Of a DNA stretch of 64,000 nucleotides, positions 2,906 through 63,304 are shown one piece after another (within the stretch, counting starts at the first letter, position 1; the number at the start of each line of letters is the position of its first letter). The stretch comes from Bacteroidota bacterium (GTDB taxonomy: Bacteria > Bacteroidota > JABWAT01). The notes beneath the pieces were generated by a model. The model saw nothing but the letters and a program-made list of their open reading frames with translations. It made no database searches and was not told the DNA's origin. The position numbers and the translations under genes are program-made. The stretch spans positions 13,993-77,992 of the forward strand of contig JAFLBE010000009.1 in NCBI GenBank assembly GCA_017303995.1. Direction: 5' to 3'.

Positions 2906-4213
2906 ATGACATCCGTAAGAGTTTTGATAGGTACCTTGCTTCTGTTTACCTTTTCTTCAGGTTTTACTCAGATTTATACTGCCACAGGGCGCCTAACCCA
3001 TGCGATGATGGCAGATATGCAAAAATTAGCCACTTATAAAGTAAGTTTTGATGCATTTGGAAGTTACCTCCCCGGTACATTCAGCGGCCAGACTGGTTCC
3101 GGTGCACTTCTAAATCAGAATTATTTGGGTTTGGATTATGGCATTACCGACAATTTTCAGGTTTCAGCTATATTCAACGTTCTTCAGATGAATCATTCTT
3201 CCTCAAAGTCAACATTCAATGCGGGTCCGGTTACCCTTGGAATGAAAATTGGGAATTTACCTTTTCTTGATGGCAGAGTTCAGACCGGATTTTTAATCGG
3301 GACAAGTTTTGCTATCGGTGATCTTAATAATGTTCCTTTTTATCCGTATTACTCGGGAACTGTTGAAATTGGCATTGGTAATATTACCTCATGGTATCTG
3401 GATTCTGAAAGCCCTGAACAAGGACAAAGTCTTCACTTTAATGTCATGCTGATGAATCACAATGAAAACCAGCTTGAGATGTCAAAAATAGATAGTGTTA
3501 GCTATGAAATTCCGGGTCGGGCGGTCGGAGTAAAATATGCAATCGGATATTTATATCCTTACGGAAGCTGGAATTTCTATACTGAAGTTTGGGGCGAGTG
3601 GTTTTACAAACAACCAGACAAAGTTATGTTTTCCAGAGAATCCTATTCATATTTGAATGCCGGACTTAAATACAAATTTGCCTATTGGGAATTAAATGCT
3701 TCAGCAGATGTCCAGGTAATGGGATTTACTGAGGAAACTGATTTTGTAGCTTCAACTGCAATTGGTTATCCAAAAGTTTTTATAGAGGATAAGAATTATT
3801 CCCCTTTCTTTGTTAATCTTGGTGTAACGATGAACTTTTCTGATATTGTAAACTCCTGGATGGGTTACAGTATTGCAACATACAATTACAACCTGGTTAC
3901 GGCTGATAAATATACAGACGATCTCAGAAAAGATGACGTACTTACCAAAATTGAAATGGAATATTACCGTACCATGTACGAATGTTTCAGAAATGCAAAA
4001 CGGTTTGATGAAAACATCAAAGGAACGCTTTACATTGATTTCACAGTAAAGCCAGATGGCACTGTTGAAAATGAAAAGGTTGTCATTTCTACTTTTGATT
4101 CTGCTTTGACTTCCCAGGTCGAAGATTGTATGATTGGTCAGGTTCATGACTGGGTTTTCCCTAAAGGCGAGAAACCCTTGCGTTTTGAAATCTTACCTCT
4201 GAATTTCAAATGA
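2906..4213 (+). CDS. secreted/outer-membrane hypothetical protein with a C-terminal TonB-C-like domain
   Basis: There is a signal peptide (MTSVRVLIGTLLLFTFSSGFTQ) and the body is rich in aromatic/Gly residues, like a beta-barrel. The last ~90 aa (IKGTLYIDFTVKPDGTVENEKVV...VHDWVFPKGEKP) follow the TonB_C/energy-transducer fold pattern. The start is chosen at the internal Met after the MlaD stop. Confidence 0.4.
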   Translation: MTSVRVLIGTLLLFTFSSGFTQIYTATGRLTHAMMADMQKLATYKVSFDAFGSYLPGTFSGQTGSGALLNQNYLGLDYGITDNFQVSAIFNVLQMNHSSSKSTFNAGPVTLGMKIGNLPFLDGRVQTGFLIGTSFAIGDLNNVPFYPYYSGTVEIGIGNITSWYLDSESPEQGQSLHFNVMLMNHNENQLEMSKIDSVSYEIPGRAVGVKYAIGYLYPYGSWNFYTEVWGEWFYKQPDKVMFSRESYSYLNAGLKYKFAYWELNASADVQVMGFTEETDFVASTAIGYPKVFIEDKNYSPFFVNLGVTMNFSDIVNSWMGYSIATYNYNLVTADKYTDDLRKDDVLTKIEMEYYRTMYECFRNAKRFDENIKGTLYIDFTVKPDGTVENEKVVISTFDSALTSQVEDCMIGQVHDWVFPKGEKPLRFEILPLNFK

Positions 4214-5904
4214 GTTTTTCAAACCGGATTATTCCGGTAGGTCTTGTCCTGCTGTTTCTTCTCTCCTCACCGGTTCCTGCACAACGCATTGAACCGGTCT
4301 CCGGCAAAAATGGTATCGTTGTTTCTGCTCATCCGTTAGCCAGTGAGGCAGGTCTTGCTGTTCTTAAATCTGGCGGAAATGCATTTGATGCGGCTGTCGC
4401 AGTTGGATTTGCACTCCAATCTGTTCACCCAACTGCTGGAAATATAGGTGGGGGTGGATTTGCAGTGGTTCGTCTTAAAGATGGATCTTCGTTTTCACTT
4501 GATTTCCGTGAAACTGCACCATCAGGCTCCTCCAGAGATATGTATGTCACAAATGGGAAAGCAGATGGTCGTCTTTCAACAGTTGGTGCCCTTTCTGCAG
4601 GAGTTCCCGGAACGGTCGACGGGTTAAGTCAGCTCCAAAAAAAGTGGGGTAAGCTTTCCTGGCAAAGCTGCATTGAAGCCTCAGTAAAACTTGCCCGGTT
4701 TCACCTTCTCAGTCAACAATCCGCTAAAACCCTGAATCAGTTCCGGTCCGATCTTTCACTGTTTCCCGAAACATCCTCAATTTATGTAAAAAAAGATGGT
4801 TCCGACTGGATGACGGGAGATACTTTATTTCAGCCGGATCTTGAAAAAACGTTAGAGAGAATTGCAAAATCAGGTCCCAAAGAATTTTACACCGGCGAAA
4901 CTGCCAGGTTAATTCTGAATTCTGTTAAAAAGCATCAGGGTCTCATTTCTGATTCTGATCTGCAGAACTATCAATCAAAATGGCGTAATCCATTGAAAGG
5001 CAATTACAGAGGAACAGAACTCATATCGATGGGACTTCCTTCCAGTGGTGGAATTATTTTGCTTCAAACTTTGAATATGCTTGAAACAACAACAATTGAT
5101 ACCGCAAATTTCAGAACCACGACTTTTGTCCATAATTTTTCAAGAGCCCTGCAGCTTGCCTATTCTGACCGGGCAAAATATATGGGTGATCCTGATTTTG
5201 TAAAGGTTCCTTTTGATACATTAATTTCAAAATCCTACGCAAAAAGGAGATTTAATCAAACCAGGTCAGACCGTAAATTACCATCACAGGAAGTTCAATC
5301 TGGCGTTATTTCTGGTTTTGAGCATGAAGAAACAACCCATTTCTCCATTGTTGATAACGAGGGCAATGCTGTCAGTATAACCTATACATTAAACGGAGCA
5401 TTTGGTTCATTTCTTGTTGTTGATGGCGCCGGATTTTTACTTAATAATGAAATGGATGATTTCAGTATTCAACCTGGGGTCCCGAATTCGTACGGACTCA
5501 TTGGTGGAAAGGCAAATGAAATCCAACCTGGAAAGCGAATGTTGAGCAGCATGACCCCTATGATTGCTGTTCGTGACAATAAACCGTGGCTTATCATCGG
5601 AAGTCCGGGCGGATCAACCATTCCCACAACAGTTTTGCAAACTTTTCTTAATGTTTTTCATTTTAAAATGACGATTCAGGAAGCTGTAAATGCGGGTCGG
5701 ATTCACTATCAATGGTTGCCTGATATTTTGTTTTACGAGAAGCATACACTCAGTTCTGAGCTTGTTGGCAATCTTGAAAAATTAGGGTATCAATGTGTCC
5801 AGCGATCTGGGTATCAGGGTCGTTGTGATGCCATCGAAATCAAAAATGGGTGGTATTTTGGGGGCGCTGACCCTCGTGGTGACGATTCTGCAGCTGCCTG
5901 GTAA
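4210..5904 (+). CDS. ggt: gamma-glutamyltranspeptidase
   Basis: GGT signatures are present: GGGGFAVVR, the nucleophile-region TTHFSIVD and GSPGGSTI. A signal peptide is present. Confidence 0.85.
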   Translation: MSFSNRIIPVGLVLLFLLSSPVPAQRIEPVSGKNGIVVSAHPLASEAGLAVLKSGGNAFDAAVAVGFALQSVHPTAGNIGGGGFAVVRLKDGSSFSLDFRETAPSGSSRDMYVTNGKADGRLSTVGALSAGVPGTVDGLSQLQKKWGKLSWQSCIEASVKLARFHLLSQQSAKTLNQFRSDLSLFPETSSIYVKKDGSDWMTGDTLFQPDLEKTLERIAKSGPKEFYTGETARLILNSVKKHQGLISDSDLQNYQSKWRNPLKGNYRGTELISMGLPSSGGIILLQTLNMLETTTIDTANFRTTTFVHNFSRALQLAYSDRAKYMGDPDFVKVPFDTLISKSYAKRRFNQTRSDRKLPSQEVQSGVISGFEHEETTHFSIVDNEGNAVSITYTLNGAFGSFLVVDGAGFLLNNEMDDFSIQPGVPNSYGLIGGKANEIQPGKRMLSSMTPMIAVRDNKPWLIIGSPGGSTIPTTVLQTFLNVFHFKMTIQEAVNAGRIHYQWLPDILFYEKHTLSSELVGNLEKLGYQCVQRSGYQGRCDAIEIKNGWYFGGADPRGDDSAAAW

Positions 5905-6151: not shown

Positions 6152-8350
6152 ATGTCGATATCACTGCTAAATGAACCTGCGGAACAGAATCTGAACCGGC
6201 TTTTGGAAACTTGTCACCGGAATTTAAAAACGGTTGATGACGGGTTGATCAGAAAGGCTTTTCAGTTCTCTTACACTGCCCATCAAAATATACAAAGGGC
6301 CAGTGGGGAACCGTATTTCATTCATCCGCTTGCAGTTGCTACCATTCTTGCCGAAGAATTGATTCTGGATGATATCTCGGTTGCAGCAGCACTTCTTCAT
6401 GATATCATTGAAGACACCGACTATGAATTTGATTTCCTGAAAAAGGAATTTGGTGTTACCGTCGCAAATTTAGTTGATGGTGCCACCAAAATAACCGACA
6501 TGTTTAAAAGCCATGAAGTCACTGAAGCTGAATCCTTCAGAAAACTCATGCTTTTCATGATCAAAGATATTAGGGTTATTCTGGTCAAGTTTGCTGACCG
6601 GCTTCATAACATGCGCACGCTGCAGTTCCTTCCTCACCCGAAACAAGTTAAAATCGCAACCGAAACCCTCGATATTTATGCACCTCTGGCTCACCGGTTC
6701 GGTCTCTGGCAGATTAAATGGGAGCTTGAAGATCTGAGTTTTAAATACCTGAATCCGGAATCCTACGAAGATATTTTCAGAAAAGTAAATGCACGTCGTG
6801 AAGAACGTGAAGGTTATATTGGCCAGTTCACCAATCCCATTGCAGAACGGTTGACGGCTGCCGGATTTCATTTTGAACTTTCAGGTCGTCCCAAGCATTT
6901 TTACTCGATTTACAACAAGATGGTGAACCGGGGCAAACCTTTCGAAGAAATTTATGACTTGTTTGCCGTGAGAATCATTCTCGACACCCAGCAGGCTTAT
7001 GACTGTTTTACCGTTTATGGCATTGTAAGTGATATTTATTTTCCGGTTCCGGTTCGGTTTAAAGATTATATTTCTGTTCCAAAACACAATGGCTATCAAA
7101 GTATCCATACAACAGTTGTTGGACCCGAAGGCAAATTGGTTGAAGTCCAGATCAGAACCCGTAAAATGCATGAAATTGCTGAAAAGGGAGTTGCCGCTCA
7201 CTGGTCTTACAAAGAAGCCGGTGAATCTGTTGTCAATAAGCAAAGTGATGAATGGATCAGCTGGGTCAGAGAAATTTTTGACCAGGCAGACAGTTCTGAA
7301 AATCCGAATCAGTTTATCGAAGATTTTAAACTGAATCTGTTTCAGGATGAAATATTTATTTTCACGCCGAAGGGTGATCTCAAAATCCTTCCGAAAGGGT
7401 CGACCCCGGTAGATTTTGCCTATGAAATCCATACCAACGTGGGAAATCACTGTATTGGCGCCAAAATTAATGGTAAAATTGTTCCTCTGAATACCCGAAT
7501 CGACAACGGTAATCAGGTTGAAATTATTACATCCAAAAATCAGAAACCCAATCCGGATTGGGAAAAGTTTGTTGTTACCCACAAAGCTAAAAGCAAAATC
7601 AGGGCTTTTCTGAATGAAGAAAAACGGAAGATAACTGAGCTTGGCCGTGAAATGTGGGAAAAAAGGGTTAAAAAGCTCAAGCTGAAGTTCACTGATCTTG
7701 AATTAAATAAGCTGACTCAGGATTTGAAATACTCAAATCAGTCGGCGTTTTTCTATGCGATCGGTTTCGGACTTTTCAATCATGAGGATTATCTCGAAAA
7801 ATATATCATCCGGCAGACGGCAAAAAAAGAACAGAAAGCGGATGAGAAACCTGAGTTTGGCACTTTCGAAGAATTTGTAAAGACATCCCGTTCCGGCCAG
7901 AAAACCTTGGTTGTTGAAGGTAAAAACGCCAATATTCAGATGAATTATGCCAAGTGCTGCAATCCCGTTCCCGGTGATGAAATTGTGGGATACGTGACCA
8001 TTGGCGAAGGTATTAAAGTCCACCGGAAGAATTGCCGGAATATTGTAAATTATTCAAACAGTGAAGTGCTTCGCCTGGTCGATGTTGACTGGCCAAAAGG
8101 TGCTCACGAAGATTTTATGGCTGGAATCAGGCTTTCTGGTGAAGACAGGAAAGGGTTGGTTTCTGATATCACCAATGTGATTTCAAAAACAATGAACACG
8201 AATATCAGAGGTTTAAATTTTAATACCAAGGATGGAATATTTGACGGTTCCATCATCGTTTTTGTTAATGATGTTGATCATTTGTTACGGATTATTGACC
8301 GGATGAAACGGATCGAGGGTGTGAAGTCGGTAGCCCGTCTTGAAGAGTGA
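6152..8350 (+). CDS. bifunctional (p)ppGpp synthetase/hydrolase, RelA/SpoT (RSH) family
   Basis: It has an HD hydrolase domain (LLHDIIEDT), a synthetase domain (RFKDYISVPKHNGYQSIHTTV), and TGS and ACT-like C-terminal domains (GLVSDITNVIS). Confidence 0.85.
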   Translation: MSISLLNEPAEQNLNRLLETCHRNLKTVDDGLIRKAFQFSYTAHQNIQRASGEPYFIHPLAVATILAEELILDDISVAAALLHDIIEDTDYEFDFLKKEFGVTVANLVDGATKITDMFKSHEVTEAESFRKLMLFMIKDIRVILVKFADRLHNMRTLQFLPHPKQVKIATETLDIYAPLAHRFGLWQIKWELEDLSFKYLNPESYEDIFRKVNARREEREGYIGQFTNPIAERLTAAGFHFELSGRPKHFYSIYNKMVNRGKPFEEIYDLFAVRIILDTQQAYDCFTVYGIVSDIYFPVPVRFKDYISVPKHNGYQSIHTTVVGPEGKLVEVQIRTRKMHEIAEKGVAAHWSYKEAGESVVNKQSDEWISWVREIFDQADSSENPNQFIEDFKLNLFQDEIFIFTPKGDLKILPKGSTPVDFAYEIHTNVGNHCIGAKINGKIVPLNTRIDNGNQVEIITSKNQKPNPDWEKFVVTHKAKSKIRAFLNEEKRKITELGREMWEKRVKKLKLKFTDLELNKLTQDLKYSNQSAFFYAIGFGLFNHEDYLEKYIIRQTAKKEQKADEKPEFGTFEEFVKTSRSGQKTLVVEGKNANIQMNYAKCCNPVPGDEIVGYVTIGEGIKVHRKNCRNIVNYSNSEVLRLVDVDWPKGAHEDFMAGIRLSGEDRKGLVSDITNVISKTMNTNIRGLNFNTKDGIFDGSIIVFVNDVDHLLRIIDRMKRIEGVKSVARLEE

Positions 8351-11883: not shown

Positions 11884-12149
11884 AATAGGTTCCTATTCTT
11901 CTTACTCGTATGGCTTTTCAGAATTCGCCCCGTTTTTTGTGGTTTCTGGACTCCACGACAAAATCATTTAAAAGGCAAATTCTTTGATAGGAATGCTCCG
12001 GCGGATAAATAGATATCCTGGAAACCAAAAATTGTCAGTCTGAGTGATCCTGCTTGCAGGATTGTATCGAAGACTTTCATCTCTATTTAACTGCTGGAAT
12101 AATAGTAAATTTTTCGGATTACCTGACTTTGGATTTATAAAAGGTTTTT

Positions 12150-30801: not shown

Positions 30802-32573
30802 AAAAACTGTTTTTATTAGCATTAATTGCCTCATTTGTTACCGCTTGTGCCACAAATAAGGCTACGATCTCAGAGAAGGATTTGAAGTCAACCTTGTCTT
30901 ACCTGGCATCTGACGAATTAAAGGGAAGAATGACAGGTTCTGAAGGAATCAGACAGGCTGCTACTTTTATTGCAGATCGTTACAGGGAAATGGGTTTGCA
31001 GCCAATGGGAGATTCCGGTGGATATTTTCGGTATTATGATTTCATTGCCGGTGCTGAACCTGATGCTTCTTCATTTCTTTCTGCGAATGGTAAAAATCTG
31101 GTTTATGGATCCGATTTTACTTTCAAGGGATTCACAGGCACTGCGGATATAAAAGATGCTGAAGTTGTTTTTGCCGGATTTGGTGTCAGGTCTGATTCAT
31201 TAAAATATGATGACTATTCCGGCGTTGATGTTACCGGGAAAGTTGTTGTGGTTCTCAGATACAATCCAGATGGTGATAACCCCCATTCAGTTTACAATCC
31301 GATCTCATCATTCAGAGCAAAAACAAAACTTGCAAAAGAAAAAGGTGCTGCAGCTGTTTTATTTGTAAACAGCAAAGAAGATGACGATGTGTTGCAAAAT
31401 CTAGAGTATGACCGTGCCGGAACACAGGCACTTCCTGCCATTCATGTTAAGCGAACTGTTGTTGACCAATGGCTGAAAATAGCGGGTTTTGAAACACTTT
31501 CTGCTCTTGAAACCGGAATTCAAACTTTGAAACGCCCGGATTCCAAAGTGATTTCAGGTGTAAAAATTTCACTTCATTCCGGACTTCATCTGATTAAAAA
31601 ACCGGCTTACAACGTGGTGGGCTATTTTCCGGGTTCAGATTCTCTGTTGAAAAACGAATATGTCGTTCTTGGCGCTCATTATGACCATTGGGGCATGGGC
31701 GGATCGGGTTCTCTTTATCGTGGAAATGAACCGCAAATTCACAATGGTGCCGACGATAATGCCAGTGGTTCTGCAGGAATTGTTGAACTTGCCCGAACAG
31801 TAATCACTCAGAAAAATCAACCAAAACGGTCATTGATTGTGGCGGCCTTTTCAGGCGAAGAACTTGGTTTATTGGGTTCTGCAGCGTTGGTGAGTCAATT
31901 TCCGGTTCCAACCAGTCAGGTTGTGACCATGTTCAATTTTGACATGATTGGCCGGTTGGATTCGGTCAATCAGCTTGTCATTTATGGAATGGGAACCTCA
32001 TCACAATTTAAATCACTGGCAGATTCGCTAAACAAAACCTATCAGTTCAAGTTATCATTTAAAGATGAAGGTTACGGACCCAGCGATCACTCCAGTTTTT
32101 ATGCAAAAGACATACCGGTCATGTTTTTTCATACCGGACTTCATTCAGACTATCACCGGCCAAGTGATGATGCAAATAAAATTAATTATGCAGGCACCAA
32201 AAAGGTTTTGGACTATGCTTCAGAAATTGTTGAAACGATTGTGAATCAGCCGGTTAAACCTGATTTTATAAAAGTAAAATCTCCGTCAGCCGGTCGGTCG
32301 ATGGCGTTTAATGTGTATATCGGCACGATTCCTGATTATGCCTACAACGATAAAGGGTTAAAAATAACCGGAGTAAATCCGGGTTCACCGGCCGACAAAG
32401 CCGGGTTGAAAGGCGGAGATGTAATTCTTCAGATCGGATCATCTAAAATTGACAATATTTATGATTATACTGATGCACTTTCTTCGCTGAAAGCCGGAAA
32501 AGAGGAAGTGCTGGTTTACAAACGGGATGGAAAAGAAGTCAAAGGCACAATTACTCCCGGAAAACGAAATTGA
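30798..32573 (+). CDS. M28-family zinc peptidase with a C-terminal PDZ domain (lipoprotein)
   Basis: The M28 metal-binding motifs are HYDHWG, NGADDNASG and SGEELGLLGS. The C-terminal PDZ is GLKITGVNPGSPADKAGLKGGDVILQIG. The N-terminus is lipoprotein-like (SFVTAC). Confidence 0.75.
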   Translation: MKKLFLLALIASFVTACATNKATISEKDLKSTLSYLASDELKGRMTGSEGIRQAATFIADRYREMGLQPMGDSGGYFRYYDFIAGAEPDASSFLSANGKNLVYGSDFTFKGFTGTADIKDAEVVFAGFGVRSDSLKYDDYSGVDVTGKVVVVLRYNPDGDNPHSVYNPISSFRAKTKLAKEKGAAAVLFVNSKEDDDVLQNLEYDRAGTQALPAIHVKRTVVDQWLKIAGFETLSALETGIQTLKRPDSKVISGVKISLHSGLHLIKKPAYNVVGYFPGSDSLLKNEYVVLGAHYDHWGMGGSGSLYRGNEPQIHNGADDNASGSAGIVELARTVITQKNQPKRSLIVAAFSGEELGLLGSAALVSQFPVPTSQVVTMFNFDMIGRLDSVNQLVIYGMGTSSQFKSLADSLNKTYQFKLSFKDEGYGPSDHSSFYAKDIPVMFFHTGLHSDYHRPSDDANKINYAGTKKVLDYASEIVETIVNQPVKPDFIKVKSPSAGRSMAFNVYIGTIPDYAYNDKGLKITGVNPGSPADKAGLKGGDVILQIGSSKIDNIYDYTDALSSLKAGKEEVLVYKRDGKEVKGTITPGKRN

Positions 32574-32852
32574 AGCTGATTACAGATCACTTATTACGGG
32601 TTGAAATTGCAATTAAACTCCCCTCCTTTTCAAGGAGGGGCAATCTGTCGTAAGACAGATGGGGTGGTTTCCGTGCCTATTAAAGATTGAGAAAATAACA
32701 AAACCACCCCGGCTTCGCCACCCCCCGAAAGCATTCGGGGCAGGCTCTCCTTGAAAAGGAGGGGAATTTACACCGTAACCTAACCGTAAACCGTACAACG
32801 TACCCCGTTCCACCGACTTATCACTTATAACTTGTAACTTACCACTGATTTC

Positions 32853-33158
32853 ATGTACAAACACCACATCTTTATCTGCGAAAATGAACGTCCGGCTGAT
32901 AACCCCAGGGGAAGTTGTGCTGCAAAAGGTTCGGTAGAATTAACCGCAACCTTTAAAGCTGAACTTGCCAAACGTAAATTAAAAGGAATCGTTCGTTCCA
33001 ATAAATCGGGTTGCCTTGATTTTTGCGAAAAAGGTCCGGTGGTGGTGATTTATCCTGAAGCAGTGTGGTATTCTCCCAAAACAATCGGCGATGTTGTTGA
33101 AATTGTCGAATCTCATATCGATAATGGTATCATTGTCGACAGACTGCTCATGAAATAA
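32853..33158 (+). CDS. thioredoxin-like [2Fe-2S] ferredoxin domain protein
   Basis: Four Cys residues (FICENER..., GSCAAKG, CLDFC) are spaced as in thioredoxin-like [2Fe-2S] ferredoxins. Confidence 0.55.
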   Translation: MYKHHIFICENERPADNPRGSCAAKGSVELTATFKAELAKRKLKGIVRSNKSGCLDFCEKGPVVVIYPEAVWYSPKTIGDVVEIVESHIDNGIIVDRLLMK

Positions 33159-48537: not shown

Positions 48538-49425
48538 ATGGCTGGCGGAAGTTTATTAGCTTTACTCGATGATATTACAACCATCCTGGATGACGTCTCT
48601 GTCATGACCAAGGTGGCTGCAAAGAAAACTGCCGGTGTGCTGGGTGATGATCTTGCTTTGAACGCTCAGCAGGTCAGTGGGGTGAATGCAGACAGAGAAT
48701 TGCCGGTTGTCTGGGCAGTTGCTAAAGGTTCTTTGCTGAATAAGGTGATTCTGGTTCCGGCTGCACTTCTGATCAGCACCTTTTTGCCCTGGGCCGTCAT
48801 TCCGTTGCTTATGATTGGTGGTGCCTATTTGTGTTTTGAAGGCGTTGAAAAAGTAGTTCACACTTTTTTTCACAAAAAACATGAAACAACGAATGAACCT
48901 GCTGTTGTTATTCCGGAGTCCACAGAAAAAGAAAAAATTAAAGGAGCTATCAGAACGGATTTTATTCTTTCAGCGGAAATTATTGTGATTGCTTTGGGAA
49001 CGGTTGCCGGGGCTTCATTTGGTATCCAGGTTACTGTTTTATCCGGAATTGCTCTGGTTATGACTATTGGCGTTTATGGTCTGGTTGCCGGAATTGTAAA
49101 ACTGGATGATCTTGGTTTGTGGCTGTTAAAACCGGAGTTTAATAAGGTGTTCAGAAAAATGGGTTCTGCAATTTTAAAACTTGCTCCCTGGCTGATGAAG
49201 GGACTTTCTGTTGCTGGTACGATTGCCATGTTTCTGGTGGGCGGACAAATTATCGTTCACGGAATCCCATTCATTCATCATCTTTTAACAGATACTGCTA
49301 ATCATATTCCACTTTTCTCAAGTCTTATTGAAATGACCGGGAATGCGCTTTTCGGGATTTTGGTCGGGTTTGTCGTTTTGGGCGGGGTTATGACGATTTC
49401 AAAATTGCGAAAAAACCGGATTTAA
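48538..49425 (+). CDS. DUF808-family (YedI-like) inner membrane protein
   Basis: The N-terminus is [15 protein letters not shown], typical of DUF808, followed by multiple TM helices. Confidence 0.65.
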
Positions 49426-49448
49426 AATCCGGTTTTTTCGCAATGGGT

Positions 49449-52440: not shown

Positions 52441-52603
52441 AAGCACCATAGGTGCGACCCATTTGTAGAATCAAAATCGATTTAAGATTGAAGCTCCATC
52501 GGAGCGACCTGTACAGAATCAGGGAAAGGGTAAACAGGTCGCTGCTCTGCAGCTATTTTGAGGGATGGGTTGGTTTTCTACAAACAGGTCAGGGCTACGC
52601 CCT
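52441..52603. repeat. copy 1 of a ~160-bp structured direct repeat
   Basis: It is near-identical to 52728-52890. It contains internal inverted repeats (GCACC-ata-GGTGC; TTTGTAGAA...TTCTACAAA; GCGACCTGT...ACAGGTCGC). Confidence 0.7.
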
Positions 52604-52727
52604 TCCAAAATACCTAATAAAATTGAATTTAAATCCAATATTAGAATATTAATTACAAGAATGGTTGAGGGAATTAAGGTTAACAAAACAGATACTCACT
52701 TTAGTTTTCTGTTTTGTACAAGTTTGC

Positions 52728-52890
52728 AGCACCATAGGTGCGACCCATTTGTAGAATCAAAATCGCTTTAAGTTGGAAGCTCCGTCGGAGCGACCTGTAC
52801 AGAACAAGGGAAAGGGAAAACAGGTCGCTGCTCTGCAGCTATTATGTGGGCTGGGTTGGTTTTCTACAAACAGGTCGGGGCTACGCCTCT
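52728..52890. repeat. copy 2 of the ~160-bp structured direct repeat
   Basis: It is a near-identical direct copy of 52441-52603 with about a dozen substitutions, several of them on paired stem positions. Confidence 0.7.
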
Positions 52891-62667: not shown

Positions 62668-63304
62668 CATCAACAAACGGAAATAGTTTTGGATTGTGGG
62701 ATCAATTGAGACGATTTGAACAGATTAGAGTTATTTTTCATAACCTCTTTTTACAAATCATCATTATATTAAATGAAATTTGAAGGGCATCAATTTATTA
62801 ATTGGAATCAACTTTCGTTGCCCCAACCGGAGTCACCAAAGTAAATCCGTCGAATGCCGGATGCTTCGCAAAATCCTGCTCAAAAACGCCTCCGCAGTTA
62901 CCTCAACTGCCACTTTGATGAAATCTGGTTGGGAGAATCCTCCGACCCGGTTCCGGTTTAAGGAAATTTCAGACCACCGCCCCGGATGGGGCAGAATATT
63001 GGTAGAAGATATATCCAAATAAAACATCACTCCGGCGGAGTGACACGATCTGTTACCATTTTTTATTCCGCTCCTGCGGAGCTTGAAACCTACTATTTTT
63101 TTACAGGTTCTACCAATATTTCACCCCGCCGGGGTGAGCATTTGGAACCCGAACGTCCAGGTTTATTTGTCCCGATAAAAATGAACACTTACAGCTCATC
63201 AAAACCTGTTTAAGCGAATTACTCCAATACCGACCAAATTATCCTTATCCCGCCTCGATATCCACTCCGGAAATTCGTAACTTACTCTTTTTACCGGAGA
63301 GTTT

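Follow-up and report, generated by a model that had tools for sequence, protein, structure and literature searches.

Short repeats with the potential to fold into intrastrand triplexes, the BoxC, PIT or TM sequences, have been known in Escherichia coli since 1992, while their mode of origin and spread has not been found. BoxC repeats were reportedly first described by Bergler in 1992 and rediscovered as PIT (potential intrastrand triplex) elements by Hoyne and Maher in 2000, and Hoyne et al. are said to have allowed loops of 0-10 nt. [quoted passage not shown] The sites show elevated local sequence variation, and remnants of transposases or integrases were never found near them (PMC4666352). 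Here we compare with these repeats an element lying between an M28 peptidase gene and a ferredoxin-ThyX-like gene pair in DNA of a Bacteroidota bacterium (assembly GCA_017303995.1, contig JAFLBE010000009.1), of which a stretch of 64 kb (64,000 nt), called the window below, was analysed. A preliminary description of this DNA had noticed a nested inverted-repeat element there and had named a leader or riboswitch-like RNA of the downstream operon first among three readings.

We conclude, with a probability of about 0.75, that positions 32614-32770 of the window hold a gene-less palindromic doublet of a dispersed triplex-motif repeat, related to cassettes that carry a DUF559 gene. It is very probable that the element is such a doublet, its kinship with the DUF559 cassettes is likely, and its mobilisation by DUF559 is a tentative proposal. 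Judged from its sequence, the element is a new variant of the BoxC/PIT/TMECO structural class and not TMECO itself.

Triplex design and dispersal of the repeat

Each half of the element follows one plan, a pyrimidine arm CCCCTCCTT leading to a purine arm AAGGAGGGG, a small variable hairpin and then GGGGTGGTT. The purine arm 5'-AAGGAGGGG-3' and the later 5'-GGGGTGGTT-3' obey a mirror rule, the second being the reverse of the first with A changed to T. This arrangement is the one needed for a class II (purine-motif) intrastrand triplex. As single-stranded DNA each unit is predicted to fold in this way: the pyrimidine arm would pair with the purine arm by Watson-Crick bonds, and the third strand would lie antiparallel on the purine arm, giving G·G:C and T·A:T triads. 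All nine triads are available to the left third strand GGGGTGGTT (9/9), whereas the right pyrimidine-purine (Y/R) hairpin is degenerate, with 7/9 Watson-Crick pairs and 7/9 triads, and fails a strict triplex scan.

The structure is far stronger than expected by chance. The 279-nt spacer folded as RNA gives z = -5.9 on the plus and -6.1 on the minus strand, and positions 32618-32766 folded as DNA give z = -9.5 and -8.9; in neither case did any of 200 shuffles fold as well (0/200). The 20-mer arm occurs twice in the window where 0.01 occurrences are expected. A chance origin of the structure is excluded. Nearest-neighbour folding leaves GGGGTGGTT unpaired beside the Y-R hairpin, which is compatible with a triplex, the energetics of triplexes lying outside the model.

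The dispersal of the repeat was followed with the 19-mer TCCCCTCCTTTTCAAGGAG, common to both arms, in a scan of 596 Gb comprising one genome per species, in which by our own estimate a random 19-mer would find only a handful of chance matches. It occurred in at least 120 stretches from at least 79 assemblies of more than 10 phyla, in several copies per genome, with up to 7 loci from one genome among the matches listed. The listed carriers among metagenome-assembled genomes (MAGs) belong to Burkholderiales, other Proteobacteria, Bacteroidales, other Bacteroidota, Ignavibacteria, Kapaibacteria, Balneolaceae, several Patescibacteria lineages, Armatimonadota, Nitrospinota, Acidobacteriota, Verrucomicrobiota and Brevinematales, and the cultured carriers listed are Thiorhodospira sibirica ATCC 700588 (4 loci), Hymenobacter aranciens, Robertkochia marina, Autumnicola tepida and Nitrospina sp. 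32_T5. Though only the 19-mer was required, most listed copies continue with a variable G+C-rich hairpin and then GGGGTGGTT. The symmetric form seen in the window (arm hairpin, hairpin H2, GGGGTGGTT, spacer, AACCACCCC, hairpin H3, arm hairpin) recurs at many loci, and full doublets or cassettes number 48 among the matches listed. On crude gene calls, about 82% of the units are intergenic, with no fixed orientation to their neighbours and somewhat nearer to the 3' than to the 5' ends of genes. The element ends read yT/CCCCTCC...GGAGGGG/Ar, and the ends of the 48 doublets and cassettes show no consistent direct repeat that could be a target-site duplication.

The mirror rule also holds where the sequence differs. 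Beside DUF559 genes (see below) we find, among others, the variants AAGGAGGA with AGGTGGTT, AAGGGAGG with GGAGGGTT, AAGGGGAG with GAGGGGTT, AAGAGGGG with GGGGAGTT and GGGAGGGG with GGGGTGGG; from one variant to the next, the third strand changes along with the purine arm. An exact mirror copy lies at most 75 nt 3' of the purine arm in 77 of the 157 Y-R hairpins beside these genes that are not self-mirror, compared with 12 for a direct copy and 13 for a mirror copy on the wrong side. Hairpin H2 is free in sequence and constant in pairing: among 26 units of the same length, every one of its six pairs shows covariation (6/6), with 45 double changes, one single-sided change and almost no G-U steps, and none of 500 shuffles reaches the observed score. 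Most H2 loops belong to the C(GNA)G triloops; the d(GCGAAGC) type is a classic case of an extra-stable DNA mini-hairpin. About a fifth of the family units (43/220) have a spacer of less than 9 nt and no inserted hairpin. The near absence of G-U intermediates in H2, the lack of an orientation bias and the inability of RNA to form purine-motif triplexes (PMC4666352) argue for selection on folded DNA and not on RNA. A mimic of the Shine-Dalgarno and anti-Shine-Dalgarno sequences (AAGGAGG / CCTCC) was considered as another reading of the structure and dropped in view of the mirror symmetry, as was a G-quadruplex, which published NMR data exclude for TMECO.

Several copies of the family show features of their own. 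The Chloracidobacterium MAG locus L106 has tandem arrays of ~50-nt units (CTCCCCTCCTTTTCAAGGAGGGCACGGCTTTAGCCGGGGCGTGTTATAGG) at 3814-3990 and 4561-4800, flanking its DUF559 gene, and many of these units have a degenerate third strand (GGGGCGTGTT), which suggests local amplification of units. Some doublets in T. sibirica ATCC 700588 (L081, L083, L102) mix arm types, CCCCTCCTT/GGGGTGGTT with CTCCCCCTT.../GGGGGAG; the family is mosaic, like BIMEs. In one subfamily from Bacteroidales (L041, L043, L064, L086, L097, L113) similarity reaches past the arm for ~30 nt on its upstream side (GTATGCAACTGAGTTGCAATAATTTACATT/TCCCCTCC), and a long hairpin of ~48 nt sits in loop 2; upstream of the arm the window has only TTGCAAT-A (32606-32613) in common with it. 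A distant blastn search of plasmids with the element gave no match. Viral contigs carry the unit in 23 stretches and a DUF559 relative in 8, which is rare and possibly host-derived. The 36-kb IMG/VR contig UViG_3300038435_000085 (L209, L214, L220) has at least four units, and UViG_3300049983_000004 (L210/L231) has one unit and a DUF559 relative at 63% identity. Such units could reflect phage carriage, a route for spread across phyla, or host DNA misfiled as viral.

DUF559 genes between the arms

As a forward test, 1,922 open reading frames (ORFs) of at least 120 aa from the 120 listed loci were clustered. The sole families recurring across genomes were generic ABC ATPases and a DUF559 protein of ~120 aa that directly borders the repeats, and only DUF559 was enriched beside the arms; no transposase, integrase or RAYT was recurrent in these clusters. 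E-values from 1e-31 down to 1e-34 place the arm-side protein in DUF559 (PF04480), and in NCBIfam it is similar to E. coli YcjD. Of the 120 loci, 9 have it, 8 of them with arm modules directly alongside. At three loci (L032, L106, L114) the gene lies exactly between GGGGTGGT and ACCACCCC, and at three others cut by contig ends (L073, L111, L058) the ORF likewise stands where the window has its 30-nt spacer. The cassette thus described is ~430-550 bp long and reads arm hairpin, H2 (not always present), GGGGTGGT, DUF559 ORF, ACCACCCC, H3 (likewise), arm hairpin. Since the same two arms bracket a DUF559 gene elsewhere, the window copy is best seen as a gene-less derivative resembling a miniature inverted-repeat transposable element (MITE), with its arms 30 nt apart. 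Both kinds occur together in the MAG CAWEYU01, which has a gene-less doublet (L088) and a DUF559-linked unit (L111). None of the ORFs of the window encodes DUF559, and tblastn found no DUF559 remnant in the element, giving only spurious matches from translation of the arm.

The reverse test started from 80 DUF559 loci of metagenomes, fetched by a peptide pattern alone. The full architecture was exact in 13 of them, about 40 had at least one exact module, and most of the others had sequence variants of the same design. A sequence-agnostic scan found a triplex motif within 260 nt of the gene at 63 of the 80 loci, with a density of 4.65 motifs per kb near DUF559 against 0.20 per kb elsewhere in the same loci, a 24-fold enrichment. 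Set against arm type, protein similarity was 53.0% vs 50.3% identity (2 of 2,000 permutations).

Across the 12 kb examined around ycjD in E. coli K-12 a single triplex motif is present, namely a BoxC repeat 168 nt downstream of the gene, and the BoxC sequence beside ycjD occurs at a median of 16 places per E. coli genome. This arrangement looks like a decayed cassette of the kind found in other phyla. Two details of the region were also seen: on the minus strand at 7180-7430 of the K-12 locus (L207, NC_000913.3) a duplicated 3' fragment of ycjD precedes a BoxC/TMECO unit, and a BoxC-like hairpin contains the stop codon of ycjD itself.

The DUF559 profile matches PDB entry 3hrl (4e-28) and the catalytic domain of the homing endonuclease I-Bth0305I (3r3p, 2e-3). 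Residues D53, E64, D66 and D79 are invariant in the DUF559 proteins, and D53/D66/D79 align with D196/N208/D222 of I-Bth0305I, the equivalents of D51, H64 and D97 in Vsr. As the catalytic positions are retained, the DUF559 proteins of the cassettes are probably active nucleases. Further matches, to mREase_II (1.7e-6) and DpdF, are weak and partial, and a reading of DUF559 as part of a defence system, which had only such matches to nuclease domains to offer, was rejected. We found no literature linking DUF559 to these repeats, within a coverage that was incomplete, so that a prior description is possible.

The doublet entered the space between the M28 peptidase gene and the ferredoxin and ThyX genes in this lineage. 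We propose that it is the non-autonomous counterpart of a DUF559 cassette, and that it may have arisen by loss of the ORF or may represent an "empty" doublet into which an ORF can be copied. The DUF559 nuclease would recognise the folded arms, as triplex or hairpin on single-stranded DNA, or a cruciform, and would nick them; the arms would then spread together with the gene, through break-induced repair or gene conversion from one unit to another and possibly through template switching where forks have stalled. The lack of target duplications and the relationship to a homing endonuclease both fit such nick-and-repair spreading, whereas classical transposition is unlikely because a PD-(D/E)xK nuclease cuts DNA but cannot rejoin it. 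Spreading by DUF559 is the weakest step of this account. In its boldest form the idea would make small DUF559 (YcjD-type, Vsr-fold) endonucleases the missing partner enzymes of BoxC/PIT-type repeats, forming with them a minimal selfish cassette of ~0.45 kb with the gene-less doublets as its MITEs, which is conceivable and still rather doubtful.

A number of observations weigh against this reading. The enzyme is a PD-(D/E)xK nuclease and not a conventional transposase. Under the criteria used, 17 of the 80 DUF559 loci have no motif, and L091 and L108 have the gene placed between two whole doublets, each without a gene of its own, and not between two arms. The co-variation of arm type and protein is weak and could stem from host relatedness. 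The recurrence that the preliminary description had proposed to look for was found for the arm modules, in many genomes; there is no near-identical full-length copy of the element elsewhere, similarity to other loci being confined to these modules, and the window itself holds one copy only by pattern search and by sequence-agnostic triplex scan. The whole 279-nt spacer, beyond the 157-nt element, is missing in the relatives described below, which are too distant to give an empty/filled site pair at nucleotide resolution. Finally, a TMECO triplex was not detected in vivo (PMC4666352).

If the proposal is true, the cassette would be smaller than any known insertion sequence, with ends recognised as folded triplex/hairpin DNA, and it would have spread without target duplication across more than 10 bacterial phyla; it would further be one of few examples in which a non-B DNA structure, the triplex, acts as a recognition element. 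The DUF559 family is very common, and its strong two-way, sequence-independent association with the repeats gives a testable hypothesis for both, which can be addressed in E. coli, with ycjD and about 16-23 copies of BoxC, and in cultured carriers such as T. sibirica ATCC 700588.

The insertion locus and alternative explanations

The element lies in a spacer of 279 nt that separates the M28 peptidase gene, with its stop at 32573, from a gene for a ferredoxin-like protein of 101 aa, whose ATG is at 32853 (Table 1). All stems claimed in the preliminary description are present in the sequence. The element is bounded by a 24-nt inverted repeat, TAAACTCCCCTCCTTTTCAAGGAG / CTCCTTGAAAAGGAGGGGAATTTA (32614-32637 / 32747-32770), which is 96% complementary, and within it the 20-nt outer arm CTCCCCTCCTTTTCAAGGAG stands at 32618-32637 with its partner at 32747-32767, one position away from where these arms had been placed. 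The inner stem, GGGGTGGTTT at 32661-32670 with AAACCACCCC at 32701-32710, was given exactly, its arms 30 nt apart; the left third strand together with T32670 thus also pairs with 32701-32710. The hairpins CTGTC-GTAA-GACAG (32645-32658) and CCCCGAA-AGCA-TTCGGGG were likewise exact, the former being longer than claimed. Three features had been missed: both outer arms are themselves hairpins (on the left CCCCTCCTT-TTC-AAGGAGGGG, 32620-32640; on the right its degenerate twin CTCTCCTT-GAA-AAGGAGGGG, 32745-32764), GGC-TTC-GCC at 32711-32719 is a mini-hairpin, and GGGGTGGTT mirrors AAGGAGGGG. The GTAA loop had been taken as a GNRA-type tetraloop; the loop is there, and is better read as one of the small loops of DNA mini-hairpins, among which C(GNA)G triloops dominate in this family. 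Loop 1 has 3 nt, and loop 2, which holds self-folding hairpins in both units, measures 20 nt on the left and 33 nt on the right. The decayed right arm suggests that the window copy is old and inactive, and it is probably inert.

Table 1. Features of the element and of the surrounding spacer (window coordinates)
Feature	Position	Strand	Remarks
Whole element	32614-32770		157 bp; head-to-head palindromic doublet of two triplex-motif units
Left unit, pyrimidine (Y) arm	32620-32628	+	CCCCTCCTT
Left unit, purine (R) arm	32632-32640	+	AAGGAGGGG; Watson-Crick with Y arm across 3-nt loop TTC
Left unit, variable hairpin H2 in loop 2	32643-32660	+	ATCTGTC-GTAA-GACAGAT, 7 bp
Left unit, third strand	32661-32669	+	GGGGTGGTT; exact mirror of AAGGAGGGG with T in place of A
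Central 30-nt spacer	32671-32700		CCGTGCCTATTAAAGATTGAGAAAATAACA; position taken by the DUF559 ORF in gene-bearing cassettes
Right unit, third strand	32702-32710	-	reads GGGGTGGTT on the minus strand
Right unit, mini-hairpin	32711-32719	-	GGC-GAA-GCC on minus, GGCTTCGCC on plus; C(GAA)G triloop
Right unit, second loop-2 hairpin	32723-32740	-	CCCCGAA-AGCA-TTCGGGG, exact
Right unit, Y/R hairpin	32744-32764	-	CCCCTCCTT-TTC-AAGGAGAGC on minus; degenerate
Left spacer remainder	32574-32613		without family similarity; missing in relatives
Right spacer remainder, to ferredoxin ATG	32771-32852		short ACCGTA-like words, ACTTATA x3.7; without family similarity; missing in relatives

The remaining parts of the spacer, including the ACCGTA words, have only chance-level 10-11-mers in common with other family loci. 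The run of ACCGTA-type repeats reported for 32780-32830 is weak and comes down to one 9-nt pair (32769-32777 / 32787-32795); the only tandem repeat is the 7-nt ACTTATA x3.7 at 32816-32841, just 5' of the ferredoxin start, as found by Tandem Repeats Finder. A 12-nt direct repeat, ATCACTTATTAC / ATCACTTATAAC at 32586-32597 / 32820-32831 (11/12 match), brackets the element at a distance and could be the trace of a larger insertion or chance. As target-site duplications, this pair and a 2-nt TA are judged by rough estimate to be near chance.

Look-ups of the exact ThyX and ferredoxin proteins of the window gave no record, but for the ThyX-like protein there is a 100%-identical database entry (P0001, 'Bacteroidetes bacterium' MAG), and three relatives reach 77, 75 and 71% identity; the contigs of these three are syntenic with the window, carrying DUF4340, the M28 peptidase, one or more small ferredoxin-like ORFs and ThyX. 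The distance from the peptidase stop to the next start is 6 nt (L206), 63 nt (L201/L203) and 2 nt (L205), compared with 279 nt in the window, and no arm modules are present at the peptidase/ferredoxin junction of any of the three. The conservation upstream of orthologous ferredoxin/thyX-like genes that would mark a riboregulator is thus missing, and the absence of the element from all three marks it as a lineage-specific insertion and not a conserved leader. It is not a conserved regulator of the ferredoxin-ThyX pair. The gene content of the junction also differs: two small ORFs (104-106 and 96-97 aa) lie between peptidase and ThyX in L201/L203 (3200-3812) and L205 (3244-3855), and a single 101-aa ferredoxin-like ORF in L206 and in the window (32853-33158).

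Among other explanations for the family, one that we consider unlikely though worth weighing is spread without any enzyme, through errors of replication or repair such as slippage or template switching at forks stalled by triplexes or hairpins. DUF559 would then be a structure-specific repair nuclease of the host or a passenger, its gene accumulating or retaining the repeats or using them as regulatory or insulating ends. The absence of target-site duplications agrees with this, and so do tandem arrays and local duplications (the L106 arrays, a threefold repeat at L078, the duplicated doublets at L108 and L091), the weak co-variation of arm type and protein, and the fact that more than 90% of the listed copies have no DUF559 gene nearby; TMECO sites, too, are locally unstable and have no reported mobility gene (PMC4666352). 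Local slippage, however, leaves unexplained the dozens of unlinked intergenic sites per genome and the recurrence of an identical 19-mer in assemblies from many phyla, at least 79 in number, and it accounts neither for the gene placed precisely between two third strands in many independent cassettes nor for the 24-fold enrichment of motifs near DUF559.

Still less probable is that the copy in the window was exapted, in the manner of some REP elements, as a terminator, an insulator, an mRNA-stabilising 3' structure of the M28 peptidase transcript or a barrier before the ferredoxin-ThyX pair, a role that would be compatible with its origin as a repeat. Its hairpins are very stable on both strands and family units tend to lie nearer to 3' gene ends; moreover, the genes are 2-63 nt apart and likely co-transcribed in the relatives, so that an insertion of 279 nt must change the transcript. 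Against this, no intrinsic terminator site was found on the plus strand, where, as had been noticed before, no T-run follows the stems; the minus strand has two terminator-like consensus matches, with 1.2 expected, at a place where no gene ends. PIT/BoxC showed neither promoter nor terminator activity in E. coli (cited in PMC4666352), and nothing is conserved at the locus. At this site the element probably has no dedicated function, though a side effect on how the ferredoxin-ThyX genes, adjoining the peptidase gene in relatives, are transcribed is conceivable.

A cis-regulatory leader, riboswitch-like RNA or small non-coding RNA for the ferredoxin-ThyX operon, as named first in the preliminary description, is very improbable: rich structure, a GNRA-like loop (GTAA) and a position 83 nt upstream of the ferredoxin start (~85 had been claimed) speak for it, but Rfam has no match for the element, three syntenic relatives lack it, related copies lie beside unrelated genes in either orientation, the conserved third strand obeys the mirror rules of a triplex, a DNA-only design, and not those of Watson-Crick pairing, and G-U intermediates are almost absent from the covarying hairpin. 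In the Rfam scan that had been suggested, the element found no family at gathering score, and at E<=10 only mir-2331 (E 1.4) and engA (E 0.41) appeared, unrelated families that each matched a single hairpin and were discarded as chance-level matches. For the window our reading as a repeat doublet is deflationary, since the "riboswitch-like" spacer becomes a dispersed-repeat copy between genes that are contiguous in relatives, and the element should be annotated as a repeat and not as a regulator.

Elsewhere in the window a full-length DUF805 RNA motif (RF03081) at 11894-11961 on the minus strand, with 70.6 bits against a gathering score of 51.1, is the sole Rfam match. Related inverted and direct repeats, AGCTCCATCGGAGCGACCTGT / ACAGGTCGCTGCTCTGCAGCT, recur at 52492-52877 with a period of ~286 nt and could represent a repeated protein module or another repeat family. 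A perfect 20+20-nt palindrome at 49404-49444, ATTGCGAAAAAACCGGATTT / AAATCCGGTTTTTTCGCAAT, looks like a bidirectional terminator, and a 41-nt inverted repeat, 71% complementary, extends over 154 nt near the window end (62981-63134).

Comparison with described repeat systems

The element resembles BoxC/PIT/TMECO most closely. In both, one strand carries in succession a pyrimidine arm, the complementary purine arm and a G/T-rich block that mirrors the purine arm, and both families are G/C-rich, intergenic, multi-copy and dispersed, without strand bias or target-site duplication, and occur as single units and inverted pairs, even though the 64-kb window has a single copy. They differ in their blocks, CCCTCNCCC/GGGNGAGGG/GGGNGAGGG in TMECO and CCCCTCCTT/AAGGAGGGG/GGGGTGGTT here, so that the element falls outside the TMECO/BoxC consensus in the strict sense and belongs to a different sequence family of the same structural class. 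Loop 2 has 3 nt in TMECO, whereas the 20-33 nt of the element are filled with autonomous hairpins. The ITxF search allows loops of 1-6 nt (PMC4666352), a limit that is a search parameter and not biology; loop 1 of the element fits it and loop 2 exceeds it, so that such units would be missed. TMECO is reported from Proteobacteria and has no mobility gene in published work, in contrast to the many phyla and the DUF559 gene between the arms in the family described here.

With MITEs the element shares its small size, its terminal inverted repeats, the lack of any credible ORF and its lineage-specific insertion, and in its family the non-coding form outnumbers a gene-bearing form with the same ends, as MITEs do. 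The preliminary description had listed such a miniature inverted-repeat element among its possibilities, and this holds in so far as the arm is dispersed and a gene-bearing form with the same arms exists, in other genomes and not in the 64-kb window. A classical MITE of the DDE type it is not: there is no target-site duplication, and the gene of the long form encodes a Vsr-like nuclease instead of a DDE, HUH or serine/tyrosine recombinase. Moreover, the apparent terminal inverted repeats are folded modules, each consisting of a hairpin and a triplex strand, that are also found alone.

The REP/BIME/REPIN-RAYT system and IS200/IS605 elements offer a parallel in their intergenic location, in the inverted doublet of a structured unit (REPIN), in mosaic arrays and in the absence of target-site duplications; there, too, folded single-stranded DNA is presumed to be recognised, and one small enzyme gene has the repeats on either side. 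The enzyme here is DUF559 and not a Y1 HUH transposase of the RAYT type, and the triplex mirror symmetry of the units stands against the simple palindrome with a GTAG tag of REPs. REPs are also species-specific, whereas the consensus of the present family is nearly identical across phyla.

For the enzyme the closest comparison is I-Bth0305I (PDB 3r3p). The cassette DUF559 proteins lack its NUMOD/HTH region and lie outside introns and inteins, and the homology is distant (E 2e-3). The catalytic domains are nonetheless homologous, with the catalytic Asp positions kept, and I-Bth0305I provides a precedent for a Vsr-fold nuclease that drives the spread of its own gene.

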